This document shows positions 1,975-14,845 of a stretch of DNA of 16,063 nucleotides, in pieces. The notes beneath the pieces are model-generated. The model made no database searches. It had not been told where the DNA came from and saw nothing but the letters and a program-made list of their open reading frames with translations. The stretch lies in IMG/VR virus record IMGVR_UViG_2609459830_000022; one strand, given 5' to 3'. The position numbers and the translations under genes are program-made. The stretch is from a virus. Its lineage: Duplodnaviria > Heunggongvirae > Uroviricota > Caudoviricetes. Positions within the stretch are counted from its first letter, which is position 1, and each line of letters starts with the position of its first letter.

Positions 1975-2062
1975 GTGAATATATTCCGGCCTTCTGGTTA
2001 ACAGTCCTCAGATGTGAGGGATGTAGCCAGCGCAATTTTGCGTTATCGGGAATATCAGCAAG

Positions 2063-2344
2063 TTACCGCCGTAACCGCTCCGGCTTCTTCCAGTGGTACG
2101 TGATTTTCTCCTTCTCCCGATACAGTTCAACGCGGCGATTGTAGGCCAGCATTTCCAGAACGCGGATCCGTATGTCGCGCATATCCGCATCATTAAGCTG
2201 GATACCATCACGGCGCATCACCTCAGCAACAACACGCGCATAATTTTCGGCTGTCACGCTGTCCGGCTGCGTGGTCTGTTCGTCAGCCTGCTGGCTGATT
2301 CCAGAGACGCGGCGGATTAATCGCAGTATTTCGGCTTCTGTCAT
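2063..2344 (-). CDS. Hypothetical protein (93 aa), last gene of the packaging operon
   Basis: ATG at 2344 preceded by GAGGT Shine-Dalgarno at 7 nt spacing, 14 nt downstream of the TerL stop. No recognisable motif. Confidence 0.5.
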   Translation of the reverse strand: MTEAEILRLIRRVSGISQQADEQTTQPDSVTAENYARVVAEVMRRDGIQLNDADMRDIRIRVLEMLAYNRRVELYREKEKITYHWKKPERLRR

Positions 2345-2357
2345 GCTGCTGACCTCA

Positions 2358-4019
2358 TTACACCCCGCTAAATTCTTCCAGTTTCTGGCGGTGGCTGTCG
2401 CTTATATCAAAAGCAAAATCCTCATGCTCTGCCTGGAATGTACCAAACGCCATCAGCGCCGCTACGCTCGGGTCTATCTTGTTCGGTGATTTTTTCTTGT
2501 TCGGCTTGATATTGGCGTTCGCGTCACTCTGCATCACGACGTTACTCATCGACCAGGACAACACCGGATCGCCACGATGCACAATCACCCTGCGGTTAAC
2601 AAAAACTTCGAACGATTTCGCCGCCGGACTGAATCTGAGGTAGGTTTGCGGGAACGGCTCCACCTCAAAACCTGCCCCCTGTAATTGCGTTCTGAGATGC
2701 GTGGCGTTCCACGTATCAAAGCCCACCAGCCTGATATTAAATTTCTCCGCGTCCTGCATGATGTCATCTCTGATCCGGTCGTAATCAATGCAGTCGCCAG
2801 GCGTTGTGCGTATCCAGCCTGCTTTAGCCCACTGACGATAGATGGCGCGGTTTTTATTGGCGGGGTTCTGTAGCTGAAATTCCGGCAGATAGTGACGGGA
2901 AACCAGCATAATGGTTTTACCGACCGGAAAGGCATAGCACACGCTGGAAATATCGCTGGTTGATGATAAGTCCAGCCCCGCGTAACACTCCTGGCCGTGT
3001 AAATCTTCCTCCGTGAACGTTCCGGCACACTCAGCCCATGCGCCGTTACCCATCCACGGGGTAGTCCCCTGACACCAGATATTAAATCGCTTTGTCATCA
3101 TCTCCACCCACTGCGACGGAATACCCCGCGCTTTCTGGATGGTTGAGGCCAGTTTTTCACGATCCACGGAAACATCGATGTTAGGGTTAGCCTTTATCCA
3201 CATCGCCGGATCATCAACCTCGTTTTCGTCGTCCAGCTCGTAAATCAGTACAAAAATTGAATCGTTGACCTCTTCGCCGTCCAGGATCTGGCAGCAATAA
3301 TCATAGTGCTGCTTACAGGCTGAAACGACGTTACTGCCCGATGTAGTAATGGCAAATAACAGCCCTTCGGGACGTGCGCCCATCCCCAGCTCAAGCGCGG
3401 AATAAACGCCGTTATCGGGGTGTAGGTGGTATTCGTCCACGATGGAAAGGCTGGGGTTTGTTCCCTCGATGGTTGCCGCTTTTGCTGCCAGCGGCTTTAA
3501 CAGGCTGTTGCTTTTCGGGTGCATCACCTTGTGGGCCTGAATATTCACCCGCCTGCGTAACGGTCGGGATAAAAGGCACATCTGACGCGCATCATCAAAA
3601 ACGATCCGCGCCTGGTCACGGCTCACCGCTGCGGTGTAAATATCCTGCTGCCCGTTCTCCATAATCAGAAACCAGTTAGCCAGAATCGCGGCGGTCGTGG
3701 ATTTCGCATTTTTGCGCGGCACTTCGATAAAGGCGCTCGTATATTTGCGCCGTCCGGTGGCCTTAACCTTAAAGCCGAGGATGCACGCAAAGGCGAACTG
3801 CTGCCACGGCTCCAGCTCAATGGGGCTACCGCGCATTGCGCCTTTTACGTGCGGGCACACCCTGGAAAAGGCAATAAACCGCTCCACAACCTCACGATCG
3901 AACGTGTAAAGGGGGCTTTCAAGGTCCGAAAAGTACCGTTTAACGGCCTGTTTCAGCCGTTTACAGGCCGGAATTTTGCCCGTTTTTACGTCTTCTGCGT
4001 ACTTATTCCAGGCGGTCAA
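2358..4019 (-). CDS. Terminase large subunit (HK97/Terminase_1 type), 553 aa
   Basis: Length and overall pattern typical of phage TerL with an N-terminal ATPase region and C-terminal nuclease region. The start is TTG at 4019 preceded by a GAGGA Shine-Dalgarno, overlapping the TerS 3-prime end by 17 nt. Confidence 0.88.
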   Translation of the reverse strand: MTAWNKYAEDVKTGKIPACKRLKQAVKRYFSDLESPLYTFDREVVERFIAFSRVCPHVKGAMRGSPIELEPWQQFAFACILGFKVKATGRRKYTSAFIEVPRKNAKSTTAAILANWFLIMENGQQDIYTAAVSRDQARIVFDDARQMCLLSRPLRRRVNIQAHKVMHPKSNSLLKPLAAKAATIEGTNPSLSIVDEYHLHPDNGVYSALELGMGARPEGLLFAITTSGSNVVSACKQHYDYCCQILDGEEVNDSIFVLIYELDDENEVDDPAMWIKANPNIDVSVDREKLASTIQKARGIPSQWVEMMTKRFNIWCQGTTPWMGNGAWAECAGTFTEEDLHGQECYAGLDLSSTSDISSVCYAFPVGKTIMLVSRHYLPEFQLQNPANKNRAIYRQWAKAGWIRTTPGDCIDYDRIRDDIMQDAEKFNIRLVGFDTWNATHLRTQLQGAGFEVEPFPQTYLRFSPAAKSFEVFVNRRVIVHRGDPVLSWSMSNVVMQSDANANIKPNKKKSPNKIDPSVAALMAFGTFQAEHEDFAFDISDSHRQKLEEFSGV

Positions 4020-4359
4020 GCTCGTCCTCTTCTTCTGTTTCCGGTGGATTTTTACGGCGGCTTATCGGGTCAAAACCGAGCAAAGAGGCCATTTTTATCA
4101 TCACTCTTTCAGCGTCGGATTTTGCGCTTAATGCGGGGTTTCTGCTCTCGCCGCCCTGACTGTTAACAATGCTGAACCCGCGCGCCGCAAGGTCTGCAAC
4201 GGCTTTCCGGTAAATGGAGTAATTGACGCAATACAGTTCCAGATTACTCCAGTCGGCGGGAGTCAGGTCACCCCGTTCCGCAAGCTGCCGCGATTTTTCC
4301 CGCCACTGCTTCACGGCGATATCATCCAGGTAGGCGGGGGCTTTCGGTGGTCTTGCCAT
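4003..4359 (-). CDS. Terminase small subunit, P27 family (118 aa)
   Basis: Sequence pattern (DLTPADWSNLELYCVNYSIYRKA ... LLGFDPISRRK) matches the P27-family phage TerS. ATG at 4359, TAA at 4003-4005, positioned directly upstream of TerL. Confidence 0.82.
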   Translation of the reverse strand: MARPPKAPAYLDDIAVKQWREKSRQLAERGDLTPADWSNLELYCVNYSIYRKAVADLAARGFSIVNSQGGESRNPALSAKSDAERVMIKMASLLGFDPISRRKNPPETEEEDELDRLE

Positions 4360-4399
4360 GCTTATTTTTTCGCCAGATTATTTTTCAAAAAATTCCCGT

Positions 4400-4480
4400 G
4401 CATAAAAATTTGAGGAGGCGTTCGGTTCCCGGCGGGGTCGGGTTTGTCCTGAAAACGCCCCCCACCCCGTCATACAGCCT
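4400..4480. other. Candidate cos / packaging-initiation region between HNH and TerS
   Basis: A 289-bp non-coding gap sits between the HNH stop (4649) and the TerS start (4359). It contains a G/C-rich segment (ccggcggggtcgggtttgtcct ... cgccccccaccccg) flanked by A/T-rich sequence. The HNH-cos-TerS-TerL arrangement is the standard layout in HK97-like cos phages. Confidence 0.4.
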
Positions 4481-4648
4481 CATCAGCGATTGCGGAAACA
4501 TTCCATAACCTCGCGGTCACGGTCGTTTAATCGCGTCGCTGTGATGCGTTCTGCGCGTCCTGATGCTTTATCTTTATGCCCTGTTTCCTGTGCCTTCCAT
4601 GCGTCACGCTGCCTTATCAGTCCACGGATAAGGCGGTTTTGTTCCCGC

Positions 4649-5089
4649 TCATTCATCAGCGTCATACATCCAGTTATTGCGGTTAGCGGCCCGTTCTTCC
4701 TCTTCACGAAATCCACCTGCGGCACGCTTGCTTTTTGTTGCCGGATCAAGCCATTTCGTTTTCTGGTTATGACACGCCTGGCACAATGGCTGATGGTTCC
4801 ATTCGGGCCAGAAGAGAACATCATCACCGCCATTAATCGGGATAATGTGATCCACCACCACGGCGGGCGTATATATCCCCTTCTCAAGGCATCGCACGCA
4901 TAACGGGTTTTTACTCAGATACATGGCGCGGTATTTGTCCCACTGTCTGGAGTACCCACGCGCGCGGCGGTGTCCTCGTCTGGCATCCTCTGCACGCCAT
5001 GCCGCCCGCCTGTGCTCCTCACACTTGCCGGACTTCACGCGCCTGTTACAGCCTGGTTCTGTGCATCGTCTTAATGGTTGCCACGGCAT
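4649..5089 (-). CDS. HNH endonuclease (146 aa), packaging-associated
   Basis: Cys pairs (CTEPGC, CVRC, CQAC) plus the D-H ... N ... H motif (VVVDHIIPINGG ... WNHQPLCQACHNQK). ATGA overlap with the upstream connector gene. Confidence 0.85.
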   Translation of the reverse strand: MPWQPLRRCTEPGCNRRVKSGKCEEHRRAAWRAEDARRGHRRARGYSRQWDKYRAMYLSKNPLCVRCLEKGIYTPAVVVDHIIPINGGDDVLFWPEWNHQPLCQACHNQKTKWLDPATKSKRAAGGFREEEERAANRNNWMYDADE

Positions 5090-5385
5090 CAGTACACCCC
5101 CACATCACGGTAAGCCGTCCAGAGTGCGCCTATCGTCATGGGTACGTGTGTTTTTGCGTTATCCGCGACAATCTGGCGATTCTCATACAGGTGAGCGATA
5201 AACATCATGCAGCCAATCTTTATGGCTGGCGTGAACCCCAGCCCGTCATCAAAGCGCCTGCCTATGTGTATCTGGCACGCCTCAAGCGATGCGGCAATGT
5301 ATCCGCTGATTAACTGGTCTTCCTCGTCGCCATCGATGCGGCAATGGAGTTTCACTTCTTCCAGGGTGATAAGTTCTTCTGTCAT
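5089..5385 (-). CDS. Head-tail connector protein (gp6-like), 98 aa
   Basis: N-terminal LITLEEVKLHCRIDGDEEDQLISGYIAAS pattern typical of the Phage_connect_1 family. ATGA overlap with the upstream adaptor gene. Confidence 0.72.
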   Translation of the reverse strand: MTEELITLEEVKLHCRIDGDEEDQLISGYIAASLEACQIHIGRRFDDGLGFTPAIKIGCMMFIAHLYENRQIVADNAKTHVPMTIGALWTAYRDVGVY

Positions 5386-5720
5386 TTTTCCGCGCCCTCA
5401 CGACAAAGAATTTCAAGGCGTGTCCTGGCGGCATCCGGCAGCGGCTGCCCGATGATATTCAGTACACGCCCCGCCAGCGGCCCCGTATTGACCTTTATCC
5501 GGCTGGTGGCGTTGATGTCCTTCCGGTACCGTATCCAGATCCTTACCGTACCAATCGCCAGCTCTGCACCCGATGAAATGGCCTCCTTGCTGCTGACCAT
5601 GTTCACGCTTGCCCAGAGTGTGTGACCGTCCTCCCACGTTTCGAGTATTTCGCCCGTCATGGCTCTGGTCTGTTTCAGGGTCTGAATCGTTACCCTGTCA
5701 CGCAGTCGCCCTATGTTCAT
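5382..5720 (-). CDS. Head-tail adaptor / head closure protein (112 aa from ATG 5720; alternative ATG at 5762)
   Basis: RVTIQ ... ETWEDGHTLWASV ... pattern of phage head-tail joining proteins. The ATG at 5720 overlaps the portal stop (ATGA coupling). Confidence 0.68.
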   Translation of the reverse strand: MNIGRLRDRVTIQTLKQTRAMTGEILETWEDGHTLWASVNMVSSKEAISSGAELAIGTVRIWIRYRKDINATSRIKVNTGPLAGRVLNIIGQPLPDAARTRLEILCREGAEK

Positions 5721-6928
5721 TCCGGTTTTTCTCCCTCGCTGATTTTTACTTCCTGTTTCCATGCCTGGCTGAACTCATCACCACCATCACGCGGAGACAA
5801 CCCTTCTCGTTCGCGGGCTTCGTTCGGGCACATAACACCGGATTTGATGCCTCGCTCATAGGTGGCAAAGCGTTCGCCAGGAGTGGCCCGTAACAGGTCC
5901 GCGCTGTCAAACTCCACCTGATACCGGATACCAGGTACAGGTGAGGCCACCAGCAGGGCGTTTTTTATCTGCTGCTCAAAGTTCGCCAGCCACGGGCGCA
6001 TCGTCATGGTGAGAAATGCGCGGCTTGCCTCGCTGAAATTGCTGTAGGTGCTGTTGCTGTATTCCTGCAAAAAAATCGGCGAGACGTTGAACATTCGGGC
6101 GATGTCTTCAATGGTGAAGCGACGGGAGGCCAGCCATTCAGCATCCTGATTACTCATGCCCAGCTGCTGATAGCTCATACCCCCTTCAAGGATGGGCGTT
6201 TTTCCGGCGTTTCTGGCCCCTTTATAGCGTTCCAGTGCGGCTAATGCCTGTTTGCCTTTCACGCCGTCCAGCCATTCGCCTGACGTGATAACCCCTGCCG
6301 CCATCATGCCATCACGCATCACGCTCGCGCCGTGGCGTTGTTGGGCCAGCCCAAGCCCCAGCGATTCGCGGCAGATGGTTACAGGTGAGCGCCCCATAAA
6401 GCCGTCATCCGTGGAGTAACGAAGGTGAAGTACTTCCCACGGTAAATAGTTGCGGGTGTTTCCGGTGTAGGCGTCAGTGATGCAATAGCGCCAGTTATGC
6501 TCACCTGTCTGCTCCACGTTCACCGACTGCGGCGGGTAAGGATGCAAAGCGATCGGAAAACCATCACGCCCCCACTGAATCACCGCATAAGCATTACCGT
6601 TTAACAGGCAGTGGCGGATCATCATTCGCTTAAACTGGTAGGGGGTCTGCCATGCGTTCGGGCGCTCGTTGAGGATGTGATCGACCGGATGAGAATCAAG
6701 CCACTCGCGGGCCTCCTTCCCCTTCTCATTGCGTACCAGGTACAGGTAACACGGCATGGTAGCCACCGCCTCAGAGATGACCGTGACGGCGTTCATGACG
6801 GCGGGCAGTGATTCCGCTGTCCCCGATGATACGTACTCACCCGCCCCCGTGTTCGATGTGCCAGCCAGCGCCATAAACTCATCAAGCGTCATGCTGCGCT
6901 GCTCTTTTTTTCTTCTGAAAGGCCACAT
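5717..6928 (-). CDS. Portal protein, HK97 family (403 aa)
   Basis: Size and sequence pattern of HK97-type portal. ATG at 6928 preceded by a GGGGGTG Shine-Dalgarno, 1 nt after the protease stop. Confidence 0.9.
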   Translation of the reverse strand: MWPFRRKKEQRSMTLDEFMALAGTSNTGAGEYVSSGTAESLPAVMNAVTVISEAVATMPCYLYLVRNEKGKEAREWLDSHPVDHILNERPNAWQTPYQFKRMMIRHCLLNGNAYAVIQWGRDGFPIALHPYPPQSVNVEQTGEHNWRYCITDAYTGNTRNYLPWEVLHLRYSTDDGFMGRSPVTICRESLGLGLAQQRHGASVMRDGMMAAGVITSGEWLDGVKGKQALAALERYKGARNAGKTPILEGGMSYQQLGMSNQDAEWLASRRFTIEDIARMFNVSPIFLQEYSNSTYSNFSEASRAFLTMTMRPWLANFEQQIKNALLVASPVPGIRYQVEFDSADLLRATPGERFATYERGIKSGVMCPNEAREREGLSPRDGGDEFSQAWKQEVKISEGEKPE

Positions 6929-6929
6929 A

Positions 6930-7502
6930 TCACACCCCCGCTAAATCCACCCACCAGCGGCGATTATCCGCACGCGGCATTTTTTCGGGGTGCTGCTCAT
7001 ACAGGGAACGGCGGGCCAGCTCCACGCCGGAATCGGGGTAAGCCGGTACCGATGTAACGGTAATTTCGTACAGTTCCGCCACCAGCACGGTGCGCACGCA
7101 TGGATCTGTTGTGGTATCCCATACATCCTTACGGGAGCGAAAGCCAAAGCTCATCCCCGAGATGTCCCCACGCTTAACCAGTTCGATAACGTCGCGCCCT
7201 GTACTGGTATCCGGTGGGGTCAGTTCAAAGCGTAACCCTGTTTCGTCCTCTTCCAGTTTCAGCGTGCCGGAACGGGTGCGCCCCAGTAACATGCTGTGGT
7301 CATGCTCATACAGGCCGCGAACGTCATTACCCGCCGCAAGCCACTCAGTAAACGCCCCCCGCTGGAATTTTTCGTAAAACTCCCCCCATAGCAGTTCTGA
7401 AAGCTTATCCCAGCGAACAACGTAGCCCGTCAGCGTACCGGCTCCGCTGGTAGTGATTTCCGATGACCGGATTTCCATACTCTTCATAATTTTTTCACCC
7501 AT
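6930..7502 (-). CDS. Prohead protease, HK97 family (S78); true start may be ATG 7487
   Basis: HDHSMLLGRT and GDISGMSFGF motifs characteristic of HK97 prohead protease. The first ATG (7502) lacks a Shine-Dalgarno; the second ATG (7487) has GGTGA upstream. Confidence 0.88.
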   Translation of the reverse strand: MGEKIMKSMEIRSSEITTSGAGTLTGYVVRWDKLSELLWGEFYEKFQRGAFTEWLAAGNDVRGLYEHDHSMLLGRTRSGTLKLEEDETGLRFELTPPDTSTGRDVIELVKRGDISGMSFGFRSRKDVWDTTTDPCVRTVLVAELYEITVTSVPAYPDSGVELARRSLYEQHPEKMPRADNRRWWVDLAGV

Positions 7503-7532
7503 AAAACACTAAAGGGGCTTTTAAGCCCCTTC
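7503..7532 (-). terminator. Intrinsic terminator-like hairpin between the major capsid and protease genes
   Basis: Minus-strand RNA reads AAGGGGCUU-AA-AAGCCCCUU (9-bp arms) followed by UAGUGUUUU, immediately after the capsid stop (7542-7544). Confidence 0.5.
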
Positions 7533-7541
7533 TGTATGCTG

Positions 7542-8699
7542 TTAATCGTCGTCCTGTGGCAGTTCCAGAATCTTGATCGCGTTCGAATCCACCACGCCAC
7601 CGCCTAAATATTTCTGCGTGAAAATTTTGATAAAGCCCGGCTCTGTCAGGTTGTCCGGTCTGGTGCGCACGCCCGTTTCATGATCAACGATGTAATAACC
7701 GCGTTTGAAGTCACCCAGGGCGATAACGTTATCCGGCATAAATTCCAGATACTCCACCGGAAGCCCCAGCAACGTATCAGGATCACCCGCCTGTAAACGG
7801 TCGCGCCAGATGTAATCGCCGTTCGCGTTCTTCACCTTCTGAAGTTTTGCCGCCGTCGTGGAGTTAACCACCCAGACCGCGTTTTTGCGGTATTTTTTAC
7901 GTAATGCAAATTTCAGGTCGATCAGCGGGTCCGCAGATGTCCACGCCAGAGATTCGGAAGGTTTAATTACCTGCAACGTACCAAAATCACGCTCTTTGTC
8001 GTTCTTCTCTGCACGGGGTACGGATAAAAAACCTTTTGCTTTTTTGTCACCGTCGCCCACAACCAGATCGCTTTCTTCGGTTTCCGTGAAGGTGTCGCCA
8101 ATCTCACCCGTCAGCCATGAAAGGATGTCCACATCGGAAAAATCCACGATTTCCTGTGTGGTGCGCGGGTACGCATAGACCGGATACAGCTTAATGCTCA
8201 CCTCGTTAATCTGCGGGGTGCTGGTCTGTTCGCGTGCCTTACCCTCTTCACCGTGGTTAACGGTCGCACCGCCAGCGGAAACAAGCTGCTTAAACTCGTT
8301 GCTGCTGATTTTCTTCACGGTACAGATGCGGCGCATGGTGGATTCATCCGTCAGCATTCGCATGATTTCGGTGTTCAGTTCAGGGATAACGGTATAACCA
8401 CCATCAGCGGGAACGCCTGTACTTAATGCGCGGGTTTCACCTGTCAGAATGTAGTTGCGGAGTTCTGCGGGGTCAGTGGTCTGACTGCTTTTACCTGGCT
8501 TGCTGCGCTCTTCGTCTGCAATGGCTTCAAGGCGGGAAATGTCTTTATCGAGGGATTCAGCTTTAGCGCGTAATTCGTCAAATTTTGCGCCCTCAGCATC
8601 GTTAAGACTGCGGTTTTCTTTTTCCGCGTTCTCCAGCATGTCGCGCATCTGATTTTTAATGGCGGTTTTCTGCTGGCGTAATTCGATTATTCTCGGCAT
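7542..8699 (-). CDS. Major capsid protein, HK97 fold, with N-terminal coiled-coil scaffold (delta) domain; 385 aa from ATG 8699
   Basis: N-terminal charged helical region (IIELRQQKTAIKNQMRDMLENAEKENRSLNDAEGAKFDELRAKAESLDKDISRLEAIADEE) followed by a typical HK97-like capsid body. The upstream extension to 8747 in the ORF track starts at GTG and runs through a hairpin, so ATG 8699 is preferred. Confidence 0.9.
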   Translation of the reverse strand: MPRIIELRQQKTAIKNQMRDMLENAEKENRSLNDAEGAKFDELRAKAESLDKDISRLEAIADEERSKPGKSSQTTDPAELRNYILTGETRALSTGVPADGGYTVIPELNTEIMRMLTDESTMRRICTVKKISSNEFKQLVSAGGATVNHGEEGKAREQTSTPQINEVSIKLYPVYAYPRTTQEIVDFSDVDILSWLTGEIGDTFTETEESDLVVGDGDKKAKGFLSVPRAEKNDKERDFGTLQVIKPSESLAWTSADPLIDLKFALRKKYRKNAVWVVNSTTAAKLQKVKNANGDYIWRDRLQAGDPDTLLGLPVEYLEFMPDNVIALGDFKRGYYIVDHETGVRTRPDNLTEPGFIKIFTQKYLGGGVVDSNAIKILELPQDDD

Positions 8700-8736
8700 A
8701 AAAAAAGTCCTGGGATTAAGTAAGGAACTCCAGGAC
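8700..8736 (-). promoter_or_regulatory. Stem-loop plus U7 immediately 5-prime of the capsid start codon; the stem contains the only AGGA Shine-Dalgarno-like motif
   Basis: Minus-strand RNA: GUCCUGG (16-nt loop) CCAGGAC UUUUUUU AUG. Stem arms at 8707-8713 and 8730-8736, T7 at 8700-8706. Confidence 0.5.
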
Positions 8737-8913
8737 GCGGCAAACACTCAACCGTTTTTCATAAGGAAATCAGCAATCGCACCGATCGTTTTCCCGCCTG
8801 GTAATGAATATTGGCGAGAACATTAACAGGCGGAAAAGTGGCCCCAGCGTCCTGGCACCACGGGCGAGAATAATCATGATTCAGTTCGGGTAAAATATGC
8901 CGATCCGCTCAGT

Positions 8914-8940
8914 GAACAACGTGGAACAACCACGAACAAA
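8914..8940. repeat. Phased TTGTT/AACAA repeat cluster, site B (3 units, AACAA on plus strand)
   Basis: gaacaacgtg gaacaaccac gaacaaa. The reverse complement TTGTTCGTGG TTGTTCCACG TTGTTC matches site C (14754..14803) at 24 of 25 positions. It lies about 215 bp upstream of the capsid start. Confidence 0.65.
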
Positions 8941-8950
8941 TAATTTACAA

Positions 8951-8980
8951 AACATGACAAAAAGCCGGATTGCTCCGGCT
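8951..8980 (-). terminator. Rho-independent terminator after the PerC-like gene
   Basis: Minus-strand RNA: AGCCGGA-GCAA-UCCGGCU followed by UUUUUGUCAUGUUUUG, beginning 7 nt after the TAA at 8987-8989. Confidence 0.7.
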
Positions 8981-8986
8981 GTGTGA

Positions 8987-9259
8987 TTATCTGTCCTGGT
9001 AATTTCGCCATATTTCATCACCAGCACCATCCATACCCATTTCGGCATAAGTGCGATCGACCGCCTTTTTCAGGTCTCCGTAATTATCCGGCGGCTCCGG
9101 TGGCCTCTGTGCCTTCCTGGAACATTCCAGCCGTCGCATCGTGATATGATGCCGTTCCTTGTCTGTCTCCACCAGTAGCATGACTTCACCCCATCGCGCC
9201 GCCGCCCTCCGGTAAAAGCCTTTCGCCTCGAGTTCTTCCGCTATGCGGTCATGTACCAT
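8987..9259 (-). CDS. Small regulator, PerC-family-like (90 aa)
   Basis: ATG at 9259 preceded by GAGGGGGGGA Shine-Dalgarno. The motif EAKGFYRRAAARWGEVM resembles the PerC/Pch family of small transcriptional activators; the assignment is from memory of the family motif, not a search. Confidence 0.45.
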   Translation of the reverse strand: MVHDRIAEELEAKGFYRRAAARWGEVMLLVETDKERHHITMRRLECSRKAQRPPEPPDNYGDLKKAVDRTYAEMGMDGAGDEIWRNYQDR

Positions 9260-9269
9260 CGTCCCCCCC

Positions 9270-9680
9270 TCAGAACGGAATATCATCACCGTAAGGGTCA
9301 TCGCCTCCCACTGGTGGCTGATTACCCTGTGTGCCAGTGGTCTTGCGTCGGCTCCCACCAGGACGTGCCGCCCGGGCACTGATTACGCTGTCTGCAATAA
9401 CCTGATAACCCTGCCGCGTTTCCCCGTTCTGTCCGGTCCACTGGCTGACCTGCATGTTACCCGCCACGGTCAGGAGTTCACCCTTGCGGTGCCTTGCCAG
9501 TGCTTCGGCCTGTCTGCCAAATGCCAGGTCGGATAACCACATCGTCGCCGTTCCGTCATCTGCCTGGCTGCACGGAAGGGGGACCGCCATACTCGCCATC
9601 GTCATTTGTGTACCCTTGCTGGTGGTCTTTAACTGCGGGTCAGCCACCAGCCGCCCGTAAGCTGCAATTTGTGCTGTCAT
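9270..9680 (-). CDS. ssb: Single-stranded DNA-binding protein (SSB-like), 136 aa
   Basis: OB-fold-like N-terminal region, Gly/Pro-rich linker and the acidic C-terminal tip DDIPF diagnostic of SSB. GAGGTGG Shine-Dalgarno before ATG 9680. Confidence 0.8.
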   Translation of the reverse strand: MTAQIAAYGRLVADPQLKTTSKGTQMTMASMAVPLPCSQADDGTATMWLSDLAFGRQAEALARHRKGELLTVAGNMQVSQWTGQNGETRQGYQVIADSVISARAARPGGSRRKTTGTQGNQPPVGGDDPYGDDIPF

Positions 9681-9689
9681 ATTGCCACC

Positions 9690-9995
9690 TCAGTGAAGCG
9701 ATCCGGCGTTATTCTTTTTCATCTCTTCCATCATTTTTTCAGTGAGCATTACGCACTGAAAACCCATGTTTTTGATGTCTACGGGCTTCATGCCTTTATC
9801 AGTGGATATCACAGGAAGAATATCCTGATACACATCGCGGTCAGGGTAACTAAGCACACAAAGCGCCCATGATGCCACGGGTGAGGATCCTTCGTCTGTT
9901 TCAACCCACCAGCCTGGTGTAGCTGCGCTTATTTGCAGAATCGTGATCAGTCCGTTGTGCTTGTAAAGTTTTTCACCAAATTTTGGTTCGCTCAT
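9690..9995 (-). CDS. Hypothetical protein (101 aa)
   Basis: ATG at 9995 with GAGAGGTGG Shine-Dalgarno and ATGA overlap with the upstream gene. No recognisable motif. Confidence 0.5.
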   Translation of the reverse strand: MSEPKFGEKLYKHNGLITILQISAATPGWWVETDEGSSPVASWALCVLSYPDRDVYQDILPVISTDKGMKPVDIKNMGFQCVMLTEKMMEEMKKNNAGSLH

Positions 9996-10243
9996 GATTC
10001 CACCTCTCCGGTTTTAACGTTGATGGTTGTTACCTGTTCCGCTTCGGCAATCTCCCGTTCTGTCAGCGTGGCAAAGTTTGCCGCCGCCGTGGTCATGAAT
10101 GCGCTTATCAGGTCGGGATGTTCCTTCGCGTATCCTTCCCGCGTGTGGCGGTCTATCGTTCTGATTGCCACCTTTAAGGTGTGCTCAGTCATGTCTAACG
10201 CTTTATATTTTGGCTCTGTTCTGTCTCTGCGTTTTTGGGTCAT
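9992..10243 (-). CDS. Hypothetical protein (83 aa from ATG 10243; ORF track extends to GTG 10273)
   Basis: ORF immediately downstream of the iteron region. Start choice is uncertain: ATG at 10243 and ATG at 10192 are both possible. Confidence 0.4.
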   Translation of the reverse strand: MTQKRRDRTEPKYKALDMTEHTLKVAIRTIDRHTREGYAKEHPDLISAFMTTAAANFATLTEREIAEAEQVTTINVKTGEVES

Positions 10244-10253
10244 TTCTCGCAAC

Positions 10254-10447
10254 CTCTCACTTTTTCGCCTCACTTTTTCAAGCGTCTCACTTCGTCGCAG
10301 CTGGGATTTTCGGTTTTTCTATGTGTGTGTTTCATAAGTATTTTTTTACCCCTCACTTTTGAGGATGTATACAGGTCGAAAAGTGAGGGAGAGCAGGCTA
10401 ATTTTGGCCCTCTTTCTATCCACCTCGCTTTTGCTCCTCACTTTTAT
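10254..10447. repeat. Iteron cluster, putative replication origin (7 copies of CTCACTTTT, one inverted, flanking an A/T-rich core)
   Basis: Copies at about 10256, 10269, 10286 (imperfect), 10352, 10379 (inverted), 10424 (imperfect) and 10437. The A/T-rich stretch is at 10300-10350. The cluster sits immediately 3-prime of the primase-helicase gene (stop 10444-10446). Confidence 0.7.
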
Positions 10448-11844
10448 AGCGGTGCTACATCATCCCCATCGATACGAATAACCCCATCTTTTTCCAGCTT
10501 GTACAGCCAGCGCCGGAAGTTTTTCATTTCATACCCCAGCTTTTTCATGTCATCACGTAACAGCGGGATCGTGCACTTGTCGCCGTTCTGTGTGCGTGAA
10601 CGGATGCACCCCCATAGCGCGGTATGGTTTTCCGTCTTGTTCCCTGCCTCCTCGATGCGCTCCAGTTCAACAGGAGGGCGCGGATCATCCACCACCACCA
10701 GCGACGTGATTAATTCACCGTCAGCGTCGGTAAAAAGCTCCACCACGCGTAAGTCATATGCGGCTTCTTTGAGTTCCTCCGCGTCCTTCATTTTGGTGCA
10801 TGAGATAACCAGCGCTTCGCTTCCTGCGTCCTCCCTGCGTATCCGGTATTCAGCATCCAGCGAAGCACGAAATGCACTGGAACCGCGCGCGCCTTTCGTC
10901 TCATCCTTGCCGGAATGGTGAACCACCAGCACCGTGGCCCCTGTGCGTCGTTTCAGTTCGTCACAACCACGGATAAACGCCCCCATATCACGGGAATCAT
11001 TTTCATCATTCCCACCAAAGCAACGCGCCAGCGTATCCAGAATAATCATGCGTACAGGTTTACCCGTTTCCCGCTCCACCTGACGGGCAGCGATAACCAT
11101 TTCATCAACATCAAGCGGGGCAGCCGGAAAGATGGGGCGGTTTACCAGATACAGATTTTTCACCTGCTCATCGTGCACAACCTCCCAGGCTTTTACACGA
11201 CGCGGAACACCTATACCGCCTTCACCGACCACATAGAGAACCGCACCATGTGCAACCCTGCGGCCTCCCCACTGGCGACCAGTGGCAACATGGCACGCCC
11301 ACGATCCGGCAAGGAATGATTTATAGGACCCGCTAGCCCCGTATATGCTGCATAGCGATACCGCCGGAATAATCCCCTTAACCACGTAATCCAGTTGCGT
11401 GTCGTATCCGGTAGATCCAACGCTCATCGGTAGCGTGGTTTTTCGCTGGTGGTTTTTTTCTTCCGCCGGCTCTTTCCCACGCACCCGTTCCAGGTATTCG
11501 CGCCAGTTCTCCCGCATATGGCTGTGCATCCCTTCGGGGTAATAATTCGCATCAGTTACACCCGCCGCCGCCAGCTTGTGCGCAATGGCATTAATATTTG
11601 ATGGCCTGATGTGGCCTGCCTTGTACAGCCGGACACAATAGCGCCCCTCGTCGATGATTCTCAGGTCTGCCAGTTCATCCAGTTGATCATCAGCCAGCAC
11701 AACGGGAGGCACATTATCGCCAGCCAGTCGCCCGTCCTGTTCCTGCCACTGTTTCGCATGTGCCCAGGCATCACTACCCGCAAAAATAATGACTTCGGTC
11801 ATCTTGTCGTAAGGCTGTTTTTTTAAGTTCGGTGCGCTTTTCAT
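10444..11844 (-). CDS. Replication initiator: Toprim-like N-domain + RecA-like (RepA/AAA_25-type) ATPase + C-terminal winged-helix; PICI pri-rep-like
   Basis: P-loop-like IYGASGSYKSF, RepA-like segment ILDTLARCFGGNDENDSRDMGAFIRGCDELKRRTGATVLVVHHSGKD, N-terminal VIIFAGSDAWAHA Toprim-like segment. Followed by the iterons. Confidence 0.78.
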   Translation of the reverse strand: MKSAPNLKKQPYDKMTEVIIFAGSDAWAHAKQWQEQDGRLAGDNVPPVVLADDQLDELADLRIIDEGRYCVRLYKAGHIRPSNINAIAHKLAAAGVTDANYYPEGMHSHMRENWREYLERVRGKEPAEEKNHQRKTTLPMSVGSTGYDTQLDYVVKGIIPAVSLCSIYGASGSYKSFLAGSWACHVATGRQWGGRRVAHGAVLYVVGEGGIGVPRRVKAWEVVHDEQVKNLYLVNRPIFPAAPLDVDEMVIAARQVERETGKPVRMIILDTLARCFGGNDENDSRDMGAFIRGCDELKRRTGATVLVVHHSGKDETKGARGSSAFRASLDAEYRIRREDAGSEALVISCTKMKDAEELKEAAYDLRVVELFTDADGELITSLVVVDDPRPPVELERIEEAGNKTENHTALWGCIRSRTQNGDKCTIPLLRDDMKKLGYEMKNFRRWLYKLEKDGVIRIDGDDVAPL

Positions 11845-12140
11845 TTCTTGCCCCTGAATCCGTTAACCATGGTTTTCAGCTTCTGGATGTTTGCCCGTGC
11901 CCTGGCGTTGCTGGTGGGCACGTTATGCGGCGCGGTCTGTACCAGAGAAAAATCACGCCGGAACTGATAAACAGGCATCACGCAATCATATTCGTAACCT
12001 TCACGGCGGTAAGTTACGCACCGTCCCGCCACGCCCTTAATCATTACCGTGCCGCCGTACTGGTCGCGGTAAATATCACCGCGCATAAATTTAGGGTGAG
12101 TGTTGCCACTGGCAGTTAAGCCAGAATATTTAAGTTTCAT
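11841..12140 (-). CDS. Hypothetical protein (99 aa), translationally coupled to the primase-helicase
   Basis: ATG at 12140; its stop overlaps the primase start (ATGA). Confidence 0.5.
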   Translation of the reverse strand: MKLKYSGLTASGNTHPKFMRGDIYRDQYGGTVMIKGVAGRCVTYRREGYEYDCVMPVYQFRRDFSLVQTAPHNVPTSNARARANIQKLKTMVNGFRGKK

Positions 12141-12145
12141 TATTT

Positions 12146-12379
12146 TTATTCTCCGGTGTGCTGTTCGTTATATCTGTCGTGCAATGTCTCTATTTCCTGC
12201 AACTCATTTATTACAGGCTCAAGAAGCGTTATTAATGATGTAATAATCCGCGTTTTTTTTGCATTACGTTCATTATCGCCAAAGGATTCAAGGCACATCC
12301 GCAATATTTCGTACATACCTTCAGCGTAAGCAAGGGCACTAAATGCGCGGTCTATTGTTTCAAGATAAATATCACGCAT
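12146..12379 (-). CDS. Small hypothetical protein (77 aa), member of a tandem paralog trio
   Basis: ATG at 12379 with GGGGA Shine-Dalgarno. Shares the MRD start and an EI-R ... I--LI pattern with the next gene. Confidence 0.45.
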   Translation of the reverse strand: MRDIYLETIDRAFSALAYAEGMYEILRMCLESFGDNERNAKKTRIITSLITLLEPVINELQEIETLHDRYNEQHTGE

Positions 12380-12380
12380 A

Positions 12381-12602
12381 TTAATCCCCGTCCGTTGTTT
12401 TTCTTAAAACAGCTTCTGTCACGAAATCAGCATAGTTAGCGGCAATATCAAGAATATTTAGCCCTGTACCTCTGTGCTCATCAGTGCAAAGAAAGAAAAA
12501 AGCCACCCGCATAATTTCAGATATTGACGAAAGCGCATCAGCCGCATCATCAGGAACGCCGGAAAATTCTTGTTTCAGGGAATTAAAACGATCATCACGC
12601 AT
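12381..12602 (-). CDS. Small hypothetical protein (73 aa), paralog of the 77-aa and 80-aa neighbours
   Basis: ATG at 12602 immediately preceded by a G9 homopolymer on the coding strand (C9 at 12605-12613 on plus). Confidence 0.45.
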   Translation of the reverse strand: MRDDRFNSLKQEFSGVPDDAADALSSISEIMRVAFFFLCTDEHRGTGLNILDIAANYADFVTEAVLRKTTDGD

Positions 12603-12817
12603 AACCCCCCCCCATTTTCACAATCAGCAACAAGAATATTTTTAGCGTCATTCAGCGACCGCGTTGCGATGTATCGGATACATTCCAGGGCGAACGTTGT
12701 CCGGTCTTTCTGTTCTTCTCCCTGCGCAAGCTCTGCCGTGCATTCAATATCAATAAGCGCGTGCATCAGCGTAGTGAGCGCGGCGGCGGCTGCGTCCGGT
12801 GTGGTTTTATTGCACAT
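12575..12817 (-). CDS. Small hypothetical protein (80 aa from ATG 12817), third paralog
   Basis: ATG at 12817 preceded by a strong AGGAGG Shine-Dalgarno. Segment TPDAAAAALTTL resembles VPDDAADALSSI of the 73-aa gene. Its C-terminus (GGG) reads through the G9 tract. Confidence 0.4.
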   Translation of the reverse strand: MCNKTTPDAAAAALTTLMHALIDIECTAELAQGEEQKDRTTFALECIRYIATRSLNDAKNILVADCENGGGLCVMIVLIP

Positions 12818-12980
12818 GGCACACCTCCTGACGAATACGGGCGACAAAAATCAGATGTGCGTGCGGCAGCTGTGCACGTGCTTCGCGCTCAGTGGCAGCG
12901 GTAACGGTGAATATTGCAATACTGTCTGTCAGGCACTGCATAAAGCGCCAGACAAAATAAGGGCGTGTGAATACAGCCAT
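12807..12980 (-). CDS. Icd-like small protein (host cell-division-inhibitor-like), copy B, 57 aa
   Basis: ATG at 12980 with TAGGAGCC Shine-Dalgarno. Motif FVWRF ... TAATEREARAQLP ... LIFVARIRQ is shared with copy A. Family assignment is from memory of the conserved motif. Confidence 0.45.
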   Translation of the reverse strand: MAVFTRPYFVWRFMQCLTDSIAIFTVTAATEREARAQLPHAHLIFVARIRQEVCHVQ

Positions 12981-13266
12981 GTGAAAGGCTCCTACAGTAA
13001 TTTTAAGGAGTCTCGCTACTACGCTGTCAAACATGGTGGCGAGACGTAACAGGGTTGACAGACTGGCACTGTAGAGACCAGCGAGCGCAAAGGCTCCCCC
13101 GTTACGCCCCGCCATAATGCGGGTATGGGTAGGTTTACGGACACAAAAAAACCGCATATCGGAATGTAAGCGGCTGTCCGCTACAGTATTCAGGCTGTCA
13201 AACCCGGTCGCCATGTGGGCGACGGGGGAAGCATACAGCCCCGTGATAATTTTTTGCAAGCGGTTT

Positions 13267-13464
13267 TTACGCATGATGTGACCCCTGACGAATACGGGCG
13301 GCAAATACAGCAACACAACCTGACGGGCAACGGCTACGCGCTTCGCGTTCCGTCCAGGCGGTTACGTGGATGATTTGAGATTCTCCGGCACTCAGTGCCA
13401 GAAAACGCCACACAAAGGCCGTTTGTGTGTGTACAAGGTGTGGTATATGATTTACGGCAACCAT
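13267..13464 (-). CDS. Icd-like small protein, copy A, 65 aa
   Basis: ATG at 13464 with TAGGAGCC Shine-Dalgarno. Motif FVWRF ... TAWTEREARSRCP ... AVFAARIRQ. Confidence 0.5.
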   Translation of the reverse strand: MVAVNHIPHLVHTQTAFVWRFLALSAGESQIIHVTAWTEREARSRCPSGCVAVFAARIRQGSHHA

Positions 13465-13537
13465 AACGGCTCCTAGTTTACGTTGTTGGTTAGAAGCCCT
13501 GCGAGTGGTAATGACACTTGCGGGGCTTTGCTTTTTT
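13458..13537 (+). ncRNA. Candidate small cis-antisense RNA overlapping the start and Shine-Dalgarno of Icd-like copy A
   Basis: Plus-strand promoter-like TTGTGT (13423-13428), 17-nt spacer, TATGAT (13446-13451). Plus-strand-specific terminator at 13496-13537. No plus-strand ORF lies in between. Confidence 0.3.
13496..13537 (+). terminator. Rho-independent terminator, plus-strand specific
   Basis: 12-bp stem gccctgcgagtg / cacttgcggggc (two G-U wobbles on the plus RNA, which are C-A and U-C mismatches on the minus RNA), 7-nt loop, then TTTGCTTTTTT. Confidence 0.6.
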
Positions 13538-13553
13538 AAGTGCTCTTGTGTTA

Positions 13554-13600
13554 AGGTGACCACCTAACAATGGAAAGGCTAATTCAATAGGTGACCACTT
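13554..13600. promoter_or_regulatory. Two operator-like palindromes AGGTGACCACCT (13554-13565) and AGGTGACCACTT (13589-13600) in the divergent control region
   Basis: Inverted-repeat arms AGGTG/CACCT with centres 35 bp apart. The second overlaps the Shine-Dalgarno and TTG start of the RHH gene. A TTGACA hexamer on the minus strand (13605-13600) lies between them. Confidence 0.5.
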
Positions 13601-13790
13601 GTCAACAATCAAACGCGATAAAAGCCCTAAAGGGGACGGGCAATCCCCACAATTCAGAATGCGAATTTCTCCAGAGCTAAAAGAGCAATTCGACAAAGAA
13701 GCACAGAGCGACGGCATAAGCCTAGCCAACTGGCTTAAAGAGTTGGGGCGCACTGAACTAAAGCGGCGCGGCATAGAACCCAAAGGATAA
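13599..13790 (+). CDS. Arc/Mnt-like ribbon-helix-helix DNA-binding protein (63 aa, TTG start)
   Basis: SPQFRMRISPELKEQFDKEAQSDGISLANWLKELG matches the beta-strand / helix A / helix B pattern of P22 Arc (PQFNLRWPREVLDLVRKVAEENGRSVNSEIYQRV). Start must be upstream of the PQF strand; TTG at 13599 has AGGTGA 4 nt upstream. Confidence 0.55.
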   Translation: MSTIKRDKSPKGDGQSPQFRMRISPELKEQFDKEAQSDGISLANWLKELGRTELKRRGIEPKG

Positions 13791-13847
13791 AAACTATCAG
13801 CGCCGTGGTGTGAGGTATTACGGCGCATTGCTATGCAGGACAACACA

Positions 13848-14021
13848 ATGACCGATAAAGAATTGACCAAAACATTATCACCGGCACGGAAAAGACGGCG
13901 CAGAAAGATAGAGCATGAATCAGAAAGATTCGCGCCATGTGCTTTTGCCCTTGAGCAATTCCTTAAAGAGTATAGGGAAAAGCGCTCATTGCAGGTATGG
14001 CAACGAACTGAACCAGACTGA
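13848..14021 (+). CDS. Small basic hypothetical protein (57 aa from ATG 13848; ORF track starts at ATG 13833)
   Basis: ORF downstream of the RHH gene in the same plus-strand unit. AGGA 8 nt before ATG 13848. Arg/Lys-rich N-terminal half. No recognised family. Confidence 0.3.
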   Translation: MTDKELTKTLSPARKRRRRKIEHESERFAPCAFALEQFLKEYREKRSLQVWQRTEPD

Positions 14022-14115
14022 TTGCATTGCCCACCAGCCTGATAGCGGCTATCATCCCCGTGCTTATGTTTGGGATCACATACACATAAGGCGCAGCGGG
14101 TTATCTGTTCAGAAA

Positions 14116-14144
14116 GGCGGCTCCATTTCGGGGCCGCTTTTTTT
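14116..14144 (+). terminator. Rho-independent terminator closing the plus-strand RHH unit
   Basis: ggcggctcc-atttc-ggggccgc followed by T7. The stem has one G-U wobble on the plus RNA that is a mismatch on the minus RNA. Confidence 0.7.
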
Positions 14145-14290
14145 ATGCCTGAAAAACCCCAATTTTGTGGTTTTCCAGTCTCACCAGGGCGAACGAATCC
14201 CCGCCCACGTTCTGGCGTATATTCAATCTTCATGGTTATAGCTCTGTGTTCAGATGATTGATGTGTGGCGGCTGCGTGCCGCCAGCGTGA

Positions 14291-14479
14291 TTAATGAACT
14301 GCCTTGCAGCTATCCTTCCAGGCCAGAACCTCGGATAAAGACCAGCCAACGGAACGACCGCCAAGTTTACGACGTGATGGGAATTGTCCGGCCTTTTCCA
14401 GGCGGTAGCGACACGTACGGCTAAGGCCGGTTAGTTTTTCGCATTCTTTTTCACGTATAAACCGATCAGTGCTTAACAC
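14291..14479 (-). CDS. alpA: AlpA-family phage/island regulatory protein (62 aa, GTG start)
   Basis: LTGLSRTCRYRLEKAGQFPSRRKLGGRSVGWSLSEVLAWK matches the AlpA helix-turn-helix family pattern. A G7 tract serves as the Shine-Dalgarno. Located directly after the integrase gene, as in P4-like and PICI elements. Confidence 0.8.
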   Translation of the reverse strand: MLSTDRFIREKECEKLTGLSRTCRYRLEKAGQFPSRRKLGGRSVGWSLSEVLAWKDSCKAVH

Positions 14480-14520
14480 TATTGCCCCCCCTTTCGTTTC
14501 TTAAAGAGTCATCAGGTGTC

Positions 14521-14543
14521 TTATTGTGTCGTATTGTTCCCGC
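14521..14543. repeat. Phased TTGTT repeat cluster, site D (2 units, TTGT on plus strand)
   Basis: ttATTGTGTCgtATTGTTCCcgc, near-identical to the reverse complement of site A. It lies 45-65 bp upstream of the alpA start. Confidence 0.55.
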
Positions 14544-14753
14544 TAGAGTGATGAATGGCAAATATTGAGGATGTATGATTTACAGAAAATGAAACAGTAA
14601 GAATAAAATCTTTTAAATTCATGTTAATACAAAGGCATAAAATATTGTTTCATGCCTTTTTTCTCGCTCTTTAAAGAGTGATTCGCTAGTGTATAAAAAA
14701 CCAGTGACACATTAAAAATCAGCCACTTATAAATCTGTATGCTTTTTCGCCTC

Positions 14754-14803
14754 TTGTTCGTGGTTGTTCCACATTGTTGCTCATTGTTGCACGTTGTATC
14801 TGT
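14754..14803. repeat. Phased TTGTT repeat cluster, site C (5 tandem 10-bp units)
   Basis: TTGTTCGTGG TTGTTCCACA TTGTTGCTCA TTGTTGCACG TTGTATCTGT with exact 10-bp register, in the int-alpA intergenic region. Confidence 0.65.
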
Positions 14804-14812
14804 TCGCATATA

Positions 14813-14828
14813 CAGTATGCGCATACTG
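14813..14828. repeat. Perfect 16-bp palindrome cagtatgcgcatactg
   Basis: Read directly; located 18 nt downstream of the integrase stop and adjacent to repeat site C. Confidence 0.6.
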
Positions 14829-14845
14829 AAAAAACACGAAAAAAA

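Follow-up and report, generated by a model that had tools for sequence, protein, structure and literature searches.

The window analysed here is a 16,063-nucleotide (nt) stretch of DNA filed as a virus of the class Caudoviricetes (IMG/VR record IMGVR_UViG_2609459830_000022). Beyond the chromosomal gene phoQ lies a capsid-forming phage-inducible chromosomal island (cf-PICI). It is a close variant of the prototype, EcCIEDL933 from Escherichia coli O157:H7 EDL933, and the genes at positions 2358-8699 are its packaging and morphogenesis operon. We put the probability of this identification at about 0.93, and no evidence was found that contradicts assignment of the element as a cf-PICI. Read in the direction of transcription, from 8699 to 2358 on the minus strand, the module encodes the major capsid protein, protease, portal, head completion protein Hc1, head-tail adaptor Ad1, an HNH endonuclease and a 60-amino acid (aa) product, followed by a cos-like gap and the small (TerS) and large (TerL) terminase subunits. 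A first-pass annotation, made from the sequence alone, had singled out this order as non-canonical for HK97-like phages, and comparison with HK97 and with phages VW-6S and D14E bears this out. The order capsid-protease-portal-Hc1-Ad1-HNH-cos-TerS-TerL is a fixed, lineage-wide organisation of proteobacterial cf-PICIs and is their published hallmark; the observation is correct and was already known.

The interval 2358-8699 extends exactly from the stop codon of terL to the ATG of the capsid gene, and the same ATG is used in the RefSeq annotation of near-identical genomes. The first gene (7542-8699) encodes a 385-aa major capsid protein with the HK97 fold (PF05065, E = 2e-61, profile positions 1-279 of 280) that is identical at 384 of 385 residues to PDB 9GYI, the model of the EcCIEDL933 capsid (He et al., bioRxiv 10.1101/2025.02.11.637232). 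It is followed by a prohead serine protease of the S78 family (6930-7502; PF04586, Peptidase_S78, E = 7e-48), 97.4% identical to that of EcCIEDL933, a portal (5717-6928; PF04860, E = 1.7e-90, profile positions 1-321 of 321; 99.3% identical to EcCIEDL933), the head closure or completion protein Hc1 (5382-5720, with the start at 5720 as in RefSeq; PF05521, Phage_HCP, E = 1e-22; phrog_25) and the gp6-like adaptor Ad1 (5089-5385; PF05135, Phage_connect_1, E = 1.3e-11; phrog_40). Hc1 and Ad1 in the PHROG nomenclature used here correspond to the 'head-tail adaptor' and the 'head-tail connector', respectively, of the cf-PICI papers, whose names the 'adaptor' and 'connector' of the first-pass annotation follow. 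The HNH endonuclease (4649-5089; PF01844; phrog_144, E = 8e-45) belongs to the packaging accessory proteins of HK97-type cos systems, and the 3′-end of its gene overlaps an open reading frame (ORF) of 60 codons, orf60 (4483-4665; phrog_3173, E = 1e-34), that is 95% identical to an EDL933 ORF and, judged by position only, is presumably the counterpart of the EcCIEDL933 hypothetical gene 1792. The module ends with TerS of the P27/Terminase_4 family (4003-4359; PF05119, E = 1.3e-23), which matches EcCIEDL933 at 100% identity across 106 aligned aa, and TerL (2358-4019; PF03354 and PF20441), which has ATPase and nuclease domains, a TTG start codon and 97.6% identity to EcCIEDL933.

All nine ORFs are intact, with no frameshifts and near full-length coverage of the Pfam and PHROG profiles, and the packaging proteins align with those of EcCIEDL933 over their full length except for TerS (90% of the query), at identities of 95-100%. 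The family searches thus reassigned none of the functions proposed in the first-pass annotation and revealed no internal frameshift; its gene list stands, except that orf60 had been overlooked. The gene boundaries are as tight as had been described, but ATGA overlaps are present only at the portal/Hc1 and Hc1/Ad1 junctions. The Ad1 and HNH genes overlap by one base (TGATG), the protease and portal genes are separated by one base, and there are 17-nt overlaps at the TerS/TerL and HNH/orf60 junctions. Real gaps occur at two places, 39 nt 3′ of the capsid gene, with a hairpin inside, and 123 nt 5′ of terS.

The second of these gaps, between orf60 and terS, contains a probable cos region (4401-4468, minus strand), and the conserved sequences within it support the placement of cos between the HNH and TerS genes proposed earlier. 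The region is composed of box 1, GGGGTGGGGGGCGTTTTCAGGAC (4446-4468), a centre at 4421-4445 and box 2, CGCCTCCTCAAATTTTTATG (4401-4420); both boxes are conserved across the clade and the centre between them varies. The layout resembles that of the HK97 termini, in which a run of G residues lies ~50 nt short of the right end and the left end is AT-rich. Record ends are suggestive only: the linear, virion-derived record of Klebsiella vB_KppS-Ant (LR881103) stops where box 1 ends, although box 2 is missing from it, and one IMG/VR contig stops in the variable centre. In a Shigella flexneri copy of the island (CP182556.1, ~14234-14300), a deletion removes box 2 together with the first ~10 codons of terS, and this copy is probably no longer packageable.

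The identity of the element as a whole is supported by its site, its size and its gene content. Positions 1-1461 are phoQ and the match to the empty roxA-phoQ site of E. coli K-12 stops at 1469; the junction of island and chromosome, with the att core region, lies at 1460-1469 (no strand assigned), just past the phoQ stop codon where the K-12 homology ends. The island extends from ~1470 to past 16063, at least 14.6 kb and within the ~10-18 kb range of cf-PICIs, and has the same roxA-phoQ insertion site as EcCIEDL933, a dedicated attB. All of its long ORFs, from 2063 to 16063, are on the minus strand. SatelliteFinder defines cf-PICIs by eleven core components (integrase, AlpA regulator, primase or replicase, capsid, protease, portal, head-tail adaptor, head-tail connector, HNH, TerS and TerL), and all eleven are present in the island based on Pfam and PHROGs. 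No tail or lysis family was matched in PHROGs among the tested island ORFs, consistent with the SatelliteFinder rule under which tail and holin genes are forbidden. The same source describes the cf-PICI organisation as 'very conserved' and reports cf-PICIs in 13% of Enterobacteriaceae genomes. Within the module the content is HK97-like (HK97-fold capsid, S78 protease, portal, gp6/gp7-type connectors and an HNH-assisted cos terminase) and the order, capsid-protease-portal-head connectors and then hnh-terS-terL, is that of proteobacterial cf-PICIs; the canonical synteny and downstream tail genes of an HK97-like module are absent from the window. The module descends from the HK97 type without keeping to its layout.

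On both sides of the module, and also on the minus strand, the neighbouring genes are those of a satellite. A gene for a PerC-family activator (8987-9259; PF06069, E = 7.6e-44) is directly upstream, and the last gene of the island, downstream of terL, is a 93-aa ORF, orf93 (2063-2344; phrog_1561, E = 1.5e-55), with a 93.5% identical counterpart in EcCIEDL933. The satellite backbone (9270-16063), established with Pfam, PHROGs and Rfam, includes ssb (9270-9680), a 466-aa RepA/AAA_25 helicase as the replicase component (10444-11844), a DUF4222 gene (11841-12140), a C4 antisense RNA (13032-13119), the regulator alpA (14291-14479) and a tyrosine integrase (14846-16063).

The gene series and order from perC to orf93 are shared with the 15.4 kb EcCIEDL933, with packaging proteins that are 93.5-100% identical, AlpA 98% and integrase 92% identical. 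Against the identification weigh the replication protein and an incomplete end. The replicase of EcCIEDL933 is a DUF927 primase-helicase and only the N-terminal 125 aa are similar to the RepA/AAA_25 helicase of the window, and the integrase-side boundary of the island falls beyond the window. Given this different replication protein, the island is a mosaic sibling of EcCIEDL933 rather than the same element. There are also smaller differences: the perC-capsid spacer is shorter in the window, which lacks a 225-nt ORF annotated there in EDL933, and the non-coding stretch between orf93 and att has fewer repeat units.

The order of the module is neither peculiar to these two islands nor a chance arrangement. 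The 7 kb module has matches in 1,441 of 5,426 complete E. coli genomes and is at least 80% covered in 404. The entire window, from phoQ through the island, is at least 80% covered in 170 complete E. coli genomes and, among the matches listed, phoQ lies under the match. From IMG/VR we retrieved 80 loci whose capsid could be aligned (64-100% identity), the majority on contigs of ~15-17 kb. The order was the same in all 80, and they differed solely where a contig was truncated or where Hc1, which evolves fast, or the 60-aa ORF escaped detection. The same order is present in species-representative genomes of Shigella, Citrobacter, Erwinia and Gilliamella, with a deletion from portal to TerL in a Rosenbergiella copy, and in two satellite-sized records filed as phages, Klebsiella vB_KppS-Ant (16.5 kb) and Pasteurella Pmp8 (15.3 kb). 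In vB_KppS-Ant (LR881103.1), a 765-aa ORF (2036-4333) directly after terL is annotated as a tape measure protein and has no Pfam match. The first-pass annotation had argued for a conserved operon design rather than a scrambled remnant, and the intact ORFs, the retention of the order from E. coli to Pasteurella and Gilliamella, and the loss of transfer in EcCIEDL933 mutants all sustain that view.

Those mutants have been documented in the literature on EcCIEDL933. Every gene of its module was mutated and transfer was abolished in each case except for the gene 1792 mutant, in which it was severely reduced, and a conserved gene order, unlike that of the helper phage HK106, was stated for proteobacterial cf-PICIs (Alqurainy et al., bioRxiv 10.1101/2022.09.08.507074). 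The same eight-gene order has served as a criterion for cf-PICI identification, and EcCIEDL933 capsids were shown to have T=4 geometry, with the choice of usable phage tails set by the adaptor/connector pair (He et al., bioRxiv 10.1101/2025.02.11.637232). Induction and transfer of EcCIEDL933 require alpA. Only two aspects of the present analysis extend beyond the literature searched, the reason for the fixed order and the structured, conserved elements on either side of the capsid gene, and these are modest leads on regulation.

With packaging proteins 93.5-100% identical to those of EcCIEDL933, the island in the window most likely shares its helper-dependent induction, its self-made T=4 capsids and its use of helper phages for tails only. 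Upon induction, which for EcCIEDL933 depends on a helper phage acting via AlpA, the co-directional island genes would be expressed. Capsid, protease and portal would then assemble small T=4 procapsids with the HK97 fold, HNH, TerS and TerL would cleave the cos site of the island, located between orf60 and terS, and load each head with one ~15 kb genome, and Ad1 and Hc1 would seal the portal and provide the surface on which helper-phage tails dock. In this outline the function of each gene, the T=4 capsids and the theft of tails only come from the literature on the near-identical EcCIEDL933, and the identities, the intactness of the ORFs, the near-identity to EcCIEDL933 and the conservation of the order, hairpins and cos boxes were computed here. 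The cf-PICIs are widespread satellites that, being self-sufficient in capsids and dependent on phages for tails alone, can cross species boundaries, and their gene order provides a practical diagnostic that distinguishes them from prophage remnants.

The order itself appears to track, roughly, a fall in copies per particle, from ~235 capsid subunits through the protease to 12 portal subunits, ~12 each of Hc1 and Ad1 and a catalytic terminase. As it roughly follows copy number, the order may exploit operon polarity, with the hairpin 3′ of the capsid gene acting as a partial terminator or as a stabiliser of the mRNA. The terminator-like hairpin reported after the capsid gene in the first-pass annotation does exist and is conserved in relatives. 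It is a GC-rich stem-loop, GAAGGGGCTT-AAAA-GCCCCTTT (7511-7532, minus strand), within the 39-nt capsid-protease gap, followed by a T-rich tail at 7501-7510. In almost all relatives a stem-loop starts 1-17 nt past the capsid stop codon, and a fold of -10 kcal/mol or below is predicted for 43 of 49 distinct 45-nt downstream sequences versus 37% of shuffled controls. The stems of different relatives are unrelated (GGGGC/GCCCC, GGAGGC/GCCTCC and a long GCGTTCCTG/CAGGAGCGC), and the occurrence of several unrelated stem sequences argues for selection on the structure. Elevation of capsid output over that of the downstream genes by this hairpin is plausible, if unproven.

A second structured element precedes the capsid gene. 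An inverted repeat, GTCCTGG-N16-CCAGGAC (8707-8736, minus strand), is followed by a run of seven T residues (8700-8706) and then by the capsid ATG, and its 3′ arm contains a Shine-Dalgarno-like AGGA. Repeats of this form, with arms of ~7 bp, a spacer of 16-25 nt and a position 1-8 nt before the ATG, are present in 74% of 73 distinct upstream sequences and in 7% of shuffles. The arms have at least five different sequences, including TGGTTTC/GAAACCA, CTGCATG/CATGCAG and GTGTCTT/AAGACAC, and the variable length of the spacer would fit a structured RNA better than an operator for a protein. A search of the whole window with Rfam detected no known RNA family at either of the two capsid-flanking hairpins; only a C4 antisense RNA and an a1b1 target scored above the gathering score, and two further matches fell below it. 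A terminator-like hairpin is also located 3′ of perC (8958-8980, minus strand).

The words 'promoter' and 'terminator' occur nowhere in the main cf-PICI papers (Alqurainy et al.; He et al.). It is conceivable, although we consider it rather doubtful, that the pre-capsid repeat, the post-capsid hairpin and the descending-copy order together constitute a dedicated expression-control cassette of proteobacterial cf-PICIs. Such a cassette could operate as a translational operator, through processing or stabilisation of the capsid mRNA, or as insulators gated by antitermination. However it operates, the conserved elements that flank the capsid gene offer a concrete handle on the regulation of the operon. 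Several observations count against an adaptive order. The post-capsid stem of most relatives is followed by only 3-5 T residues, making these weak terminators at best, a scan of the coding strand upstream of the capsid gene for sigma-70-like promoters gave no candidate, and both HK97, with an annotated putative terminator after gp5, and VW-6S have a hairpin after the capsid gene in a canonical order. As HK97 and VW-6S have one too, the post-capsid hairpin came along with the capsid gene and did not result from the reordering. In three IMG/VR relatives there is an insertion of ~540 nt between the post-capsid hairpin and the protease gene (L055, L080 and L079, where it occupies 8623-9162); the insertion in L079 has a 179-aa ORF that matches HNH_3, with a weak AP2 match, and is homing-endonuclease-like.

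The strongest competitor to an adaptive order, to which we give slightly less than an even chance, is that it is a frozen accident of the ancestral acquisition or shuffling of an HK97-like head module, with coupled junctions that block rearrangement and no gain in expression. The wide gap between the cf-PICI clade and true phages, with identities of at most 40% for the capsid and at most 36% for TerL, is consistent with a single ancient event, the cf-PICIs of Firmicutes function with other orders, and phages that have the terminase genes first achieve the same stoichiometries. Set against this are the invariance of the order across E. coli, Pasteurella and Gilliamella despite 35-40% divergence of the capsid, and the conserved structures on both sides of the capsid gene, which suggest tuned expression, although neutrality is still compatible with both.

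Alternatively, the hairpins after perC, before the capsid gene and after it might all be insulating terminators, with the module silent until processive antitermination by an AlpA-type protein and with no gradient that favours the capsid. The island is co-directional from alpA to orf93, terminator-like sites are present at 8958-8980 and 7511-7532 and a hairpin with its seven T residues at 8700-8736, and the failure to detect a sigma-70 promoter before the capsid gene and the alpA requirement of EcCIEDL933 point in the same direction. AlpA from Pseudomonas aeruginosa is reported to be a processive antiterminator (PMC7969949, PMC9371919). The antiterminator role is, however, known for this protein and not for PICI AlpA, the pre-capsid repeat is atypical for an intrinsic terminator, with its 16-25 nt spacer and no T-run in most clades, and HK97 has its post-capsid hairpin without AlpA. 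On balance this arrangement is unlikely. That the region is instead a decayed HK97-like prophage, its genes scrambled in the course of decay, is most improbable: the head genes do lack adjoining tail or lysis genes, and decayed relatives do exist (the Shigella copy that has lost box 2 and the beginning of terS, and the Rosenbergiella copy with the portal-TerL deletion). However, none of the nine ORFs is damaged and each matches its profile over the full length, hundreds of genomes and all 80 relatives sampled have an identical architecture, the element comes with an integrase, alpA and a replication backbone of its own, and experiments show the near-identical EcCIEDL933 to be functional. Readings of the module as a mini-phage, a gene transfer agent (GTA) or an assembly artefact were considered and rejected.

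Elsewhere, in the regulatory region of the island, the C4 antisense RNA (13032-13119, minus strand) scores 69 bits against a gathering score of 45, and the a1/b1 target (13187-13236, minus strand) 46.8 bits against 46.7. ORFs of PHROG repressor families adjoin the RNA and its target (12807-13563), and an Icd-like annotation is present in the related islands of PCN033 and EDL933. The region looks like a c4-icd immunity cassette of the P1/P7 type within a cf-PICI. The ~590 nt that separate the att junction from orf93, the last gene of the island (1470-2062), are non-coding and contain short-palindrome units (for example CCTCAAATTGAGG, and then ...GAAAATATCAGCGGGTTA); the EDL933 island has ~250 nt more in its att-orf93 stretch, with extra copies of the units. 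Possible roles for these repeats include arm sites for integrase or excisionase, or an origin.

Other satellites and phages place the module in context. As the first-pass annotation recommended, synteny was compared with HK97-like phages and with other satellites, and the order is canonical in the phages and identical in cf-PICI relatives. HK97 (NC_002167; gp1-gp7, and gp74 for the HNH protein) has the order TerS-TerL-portal-protease-capsid-Ad1-Hc1, with the HNH gene at the right end beside cos. It shares with the window the HK97-fold capsid, S78 protease, portal, gp6-like Ad1, Hc1 and an HNH-dependent cos terminase, and both have HNH, cos, TerS and TerL adjacent across cos. The differences are positional and internal: in the window the head block is upstream of HNH-cos-TerS-TerL, whereas in HK97 it is downstream of TerL, and the portal-protease-capsid and Ad1-Hc1 sub-blocks are each reversed with the strand unchanged. 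The first-pass description of a reversed capsid-protease-portal block located upstream of the terminase genes, on the same strand, was accurate. Unlike HK97, the window has no phage tail, lysis or lysogeny modules, and the capsid of EcCIEDL933, near-identical to that of the window, forms T=4 shells rather than the T=7 of the HK97 type.

By capsid similarity, the true phages closest to the window are VW-6S (37%) and D14E (40%) of Pseudomonas; both have the canonical order, as do four distant loci in the genome collection. No true phage with the order of the window was found; every tailed phage with annotation that was examined is canonical, with a capsid identity of at most 40%. Matches above 58% capsid identity in the phage collection were confined to the satellite-like vB_KppS-Ant and Pmp8 (15-16.5 kb), an unannotated 3.8 kb fragment and the 106.5 kb record of Klebsiella phage P12620-1 (PQ569648.1). 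Near one end of this last record, a TerL and a capsid resembling those of cf-PICIs lie ~10 kb from each other, and the record may be a co-assembly of a phage and a satellite. The upstream position of the head block could arise from a circular phage map by moving the point at which the remaining element is inserted. Simple circular permutation was rejected as a full explanation; it accounts for a head-first, terminase-last order, as found in one Firmicute group, and not for the internal reversals, and the same-strand mirror order of a rotated canonical head block would be beyond the reach of any single inversion.

Non-canonical head orders exist outside the cf-PICIs too, as contigs from a Bartonella metagenome-assembled genome (L015, 7651-18327, and L017) show. 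This distant relative, with 30% capsid identity, has another scrambled order, namely portal, a tail-chaperone-like gene, a protease-capsid fusion, HNH, Ad1, tail terminator, Hc1, TerS, TerL, tape measure and distal tail, so that tail genes are interleaved, and has an integrase and primase upstream. Among solved structures, the next best match to the capsid of the window is that of the Rhodobacter capsulatus GTA, RcGTA (6TB9/6TBA, E ~1e-46). RcGTA has a small head with the HK97 fold, packages random host DNA and encodes its tail itself; an integrase, a replication module and a cos system are lacking.

Classical Gram-negative PICIs (EcCICFT073, EcCIED1a) and P4-like satellites share the int-alpA-replication backbone and helper-dependent induction, and the backbone genes of EcCIEDL933 are described in the literature as identical to those of classical PICIs. 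Unlike the island in the window, classical PICIs and P4 have no capsid, portal, connector proteins or TerL of their own, and remodel or redirect the capsids of the helper. The two groups of cf-PICIs in Firmicutes (Alqurainy et al., bioRxiv 10.1101/2022.09.08.507074) have the same minimal gene content and likewise steal only tails. One of these groups has portal-protease-capsid first and the other HNH-TerS-TerL first, neither has the capsid-protease-portal reversal, and independent origins were inferred by the authors.

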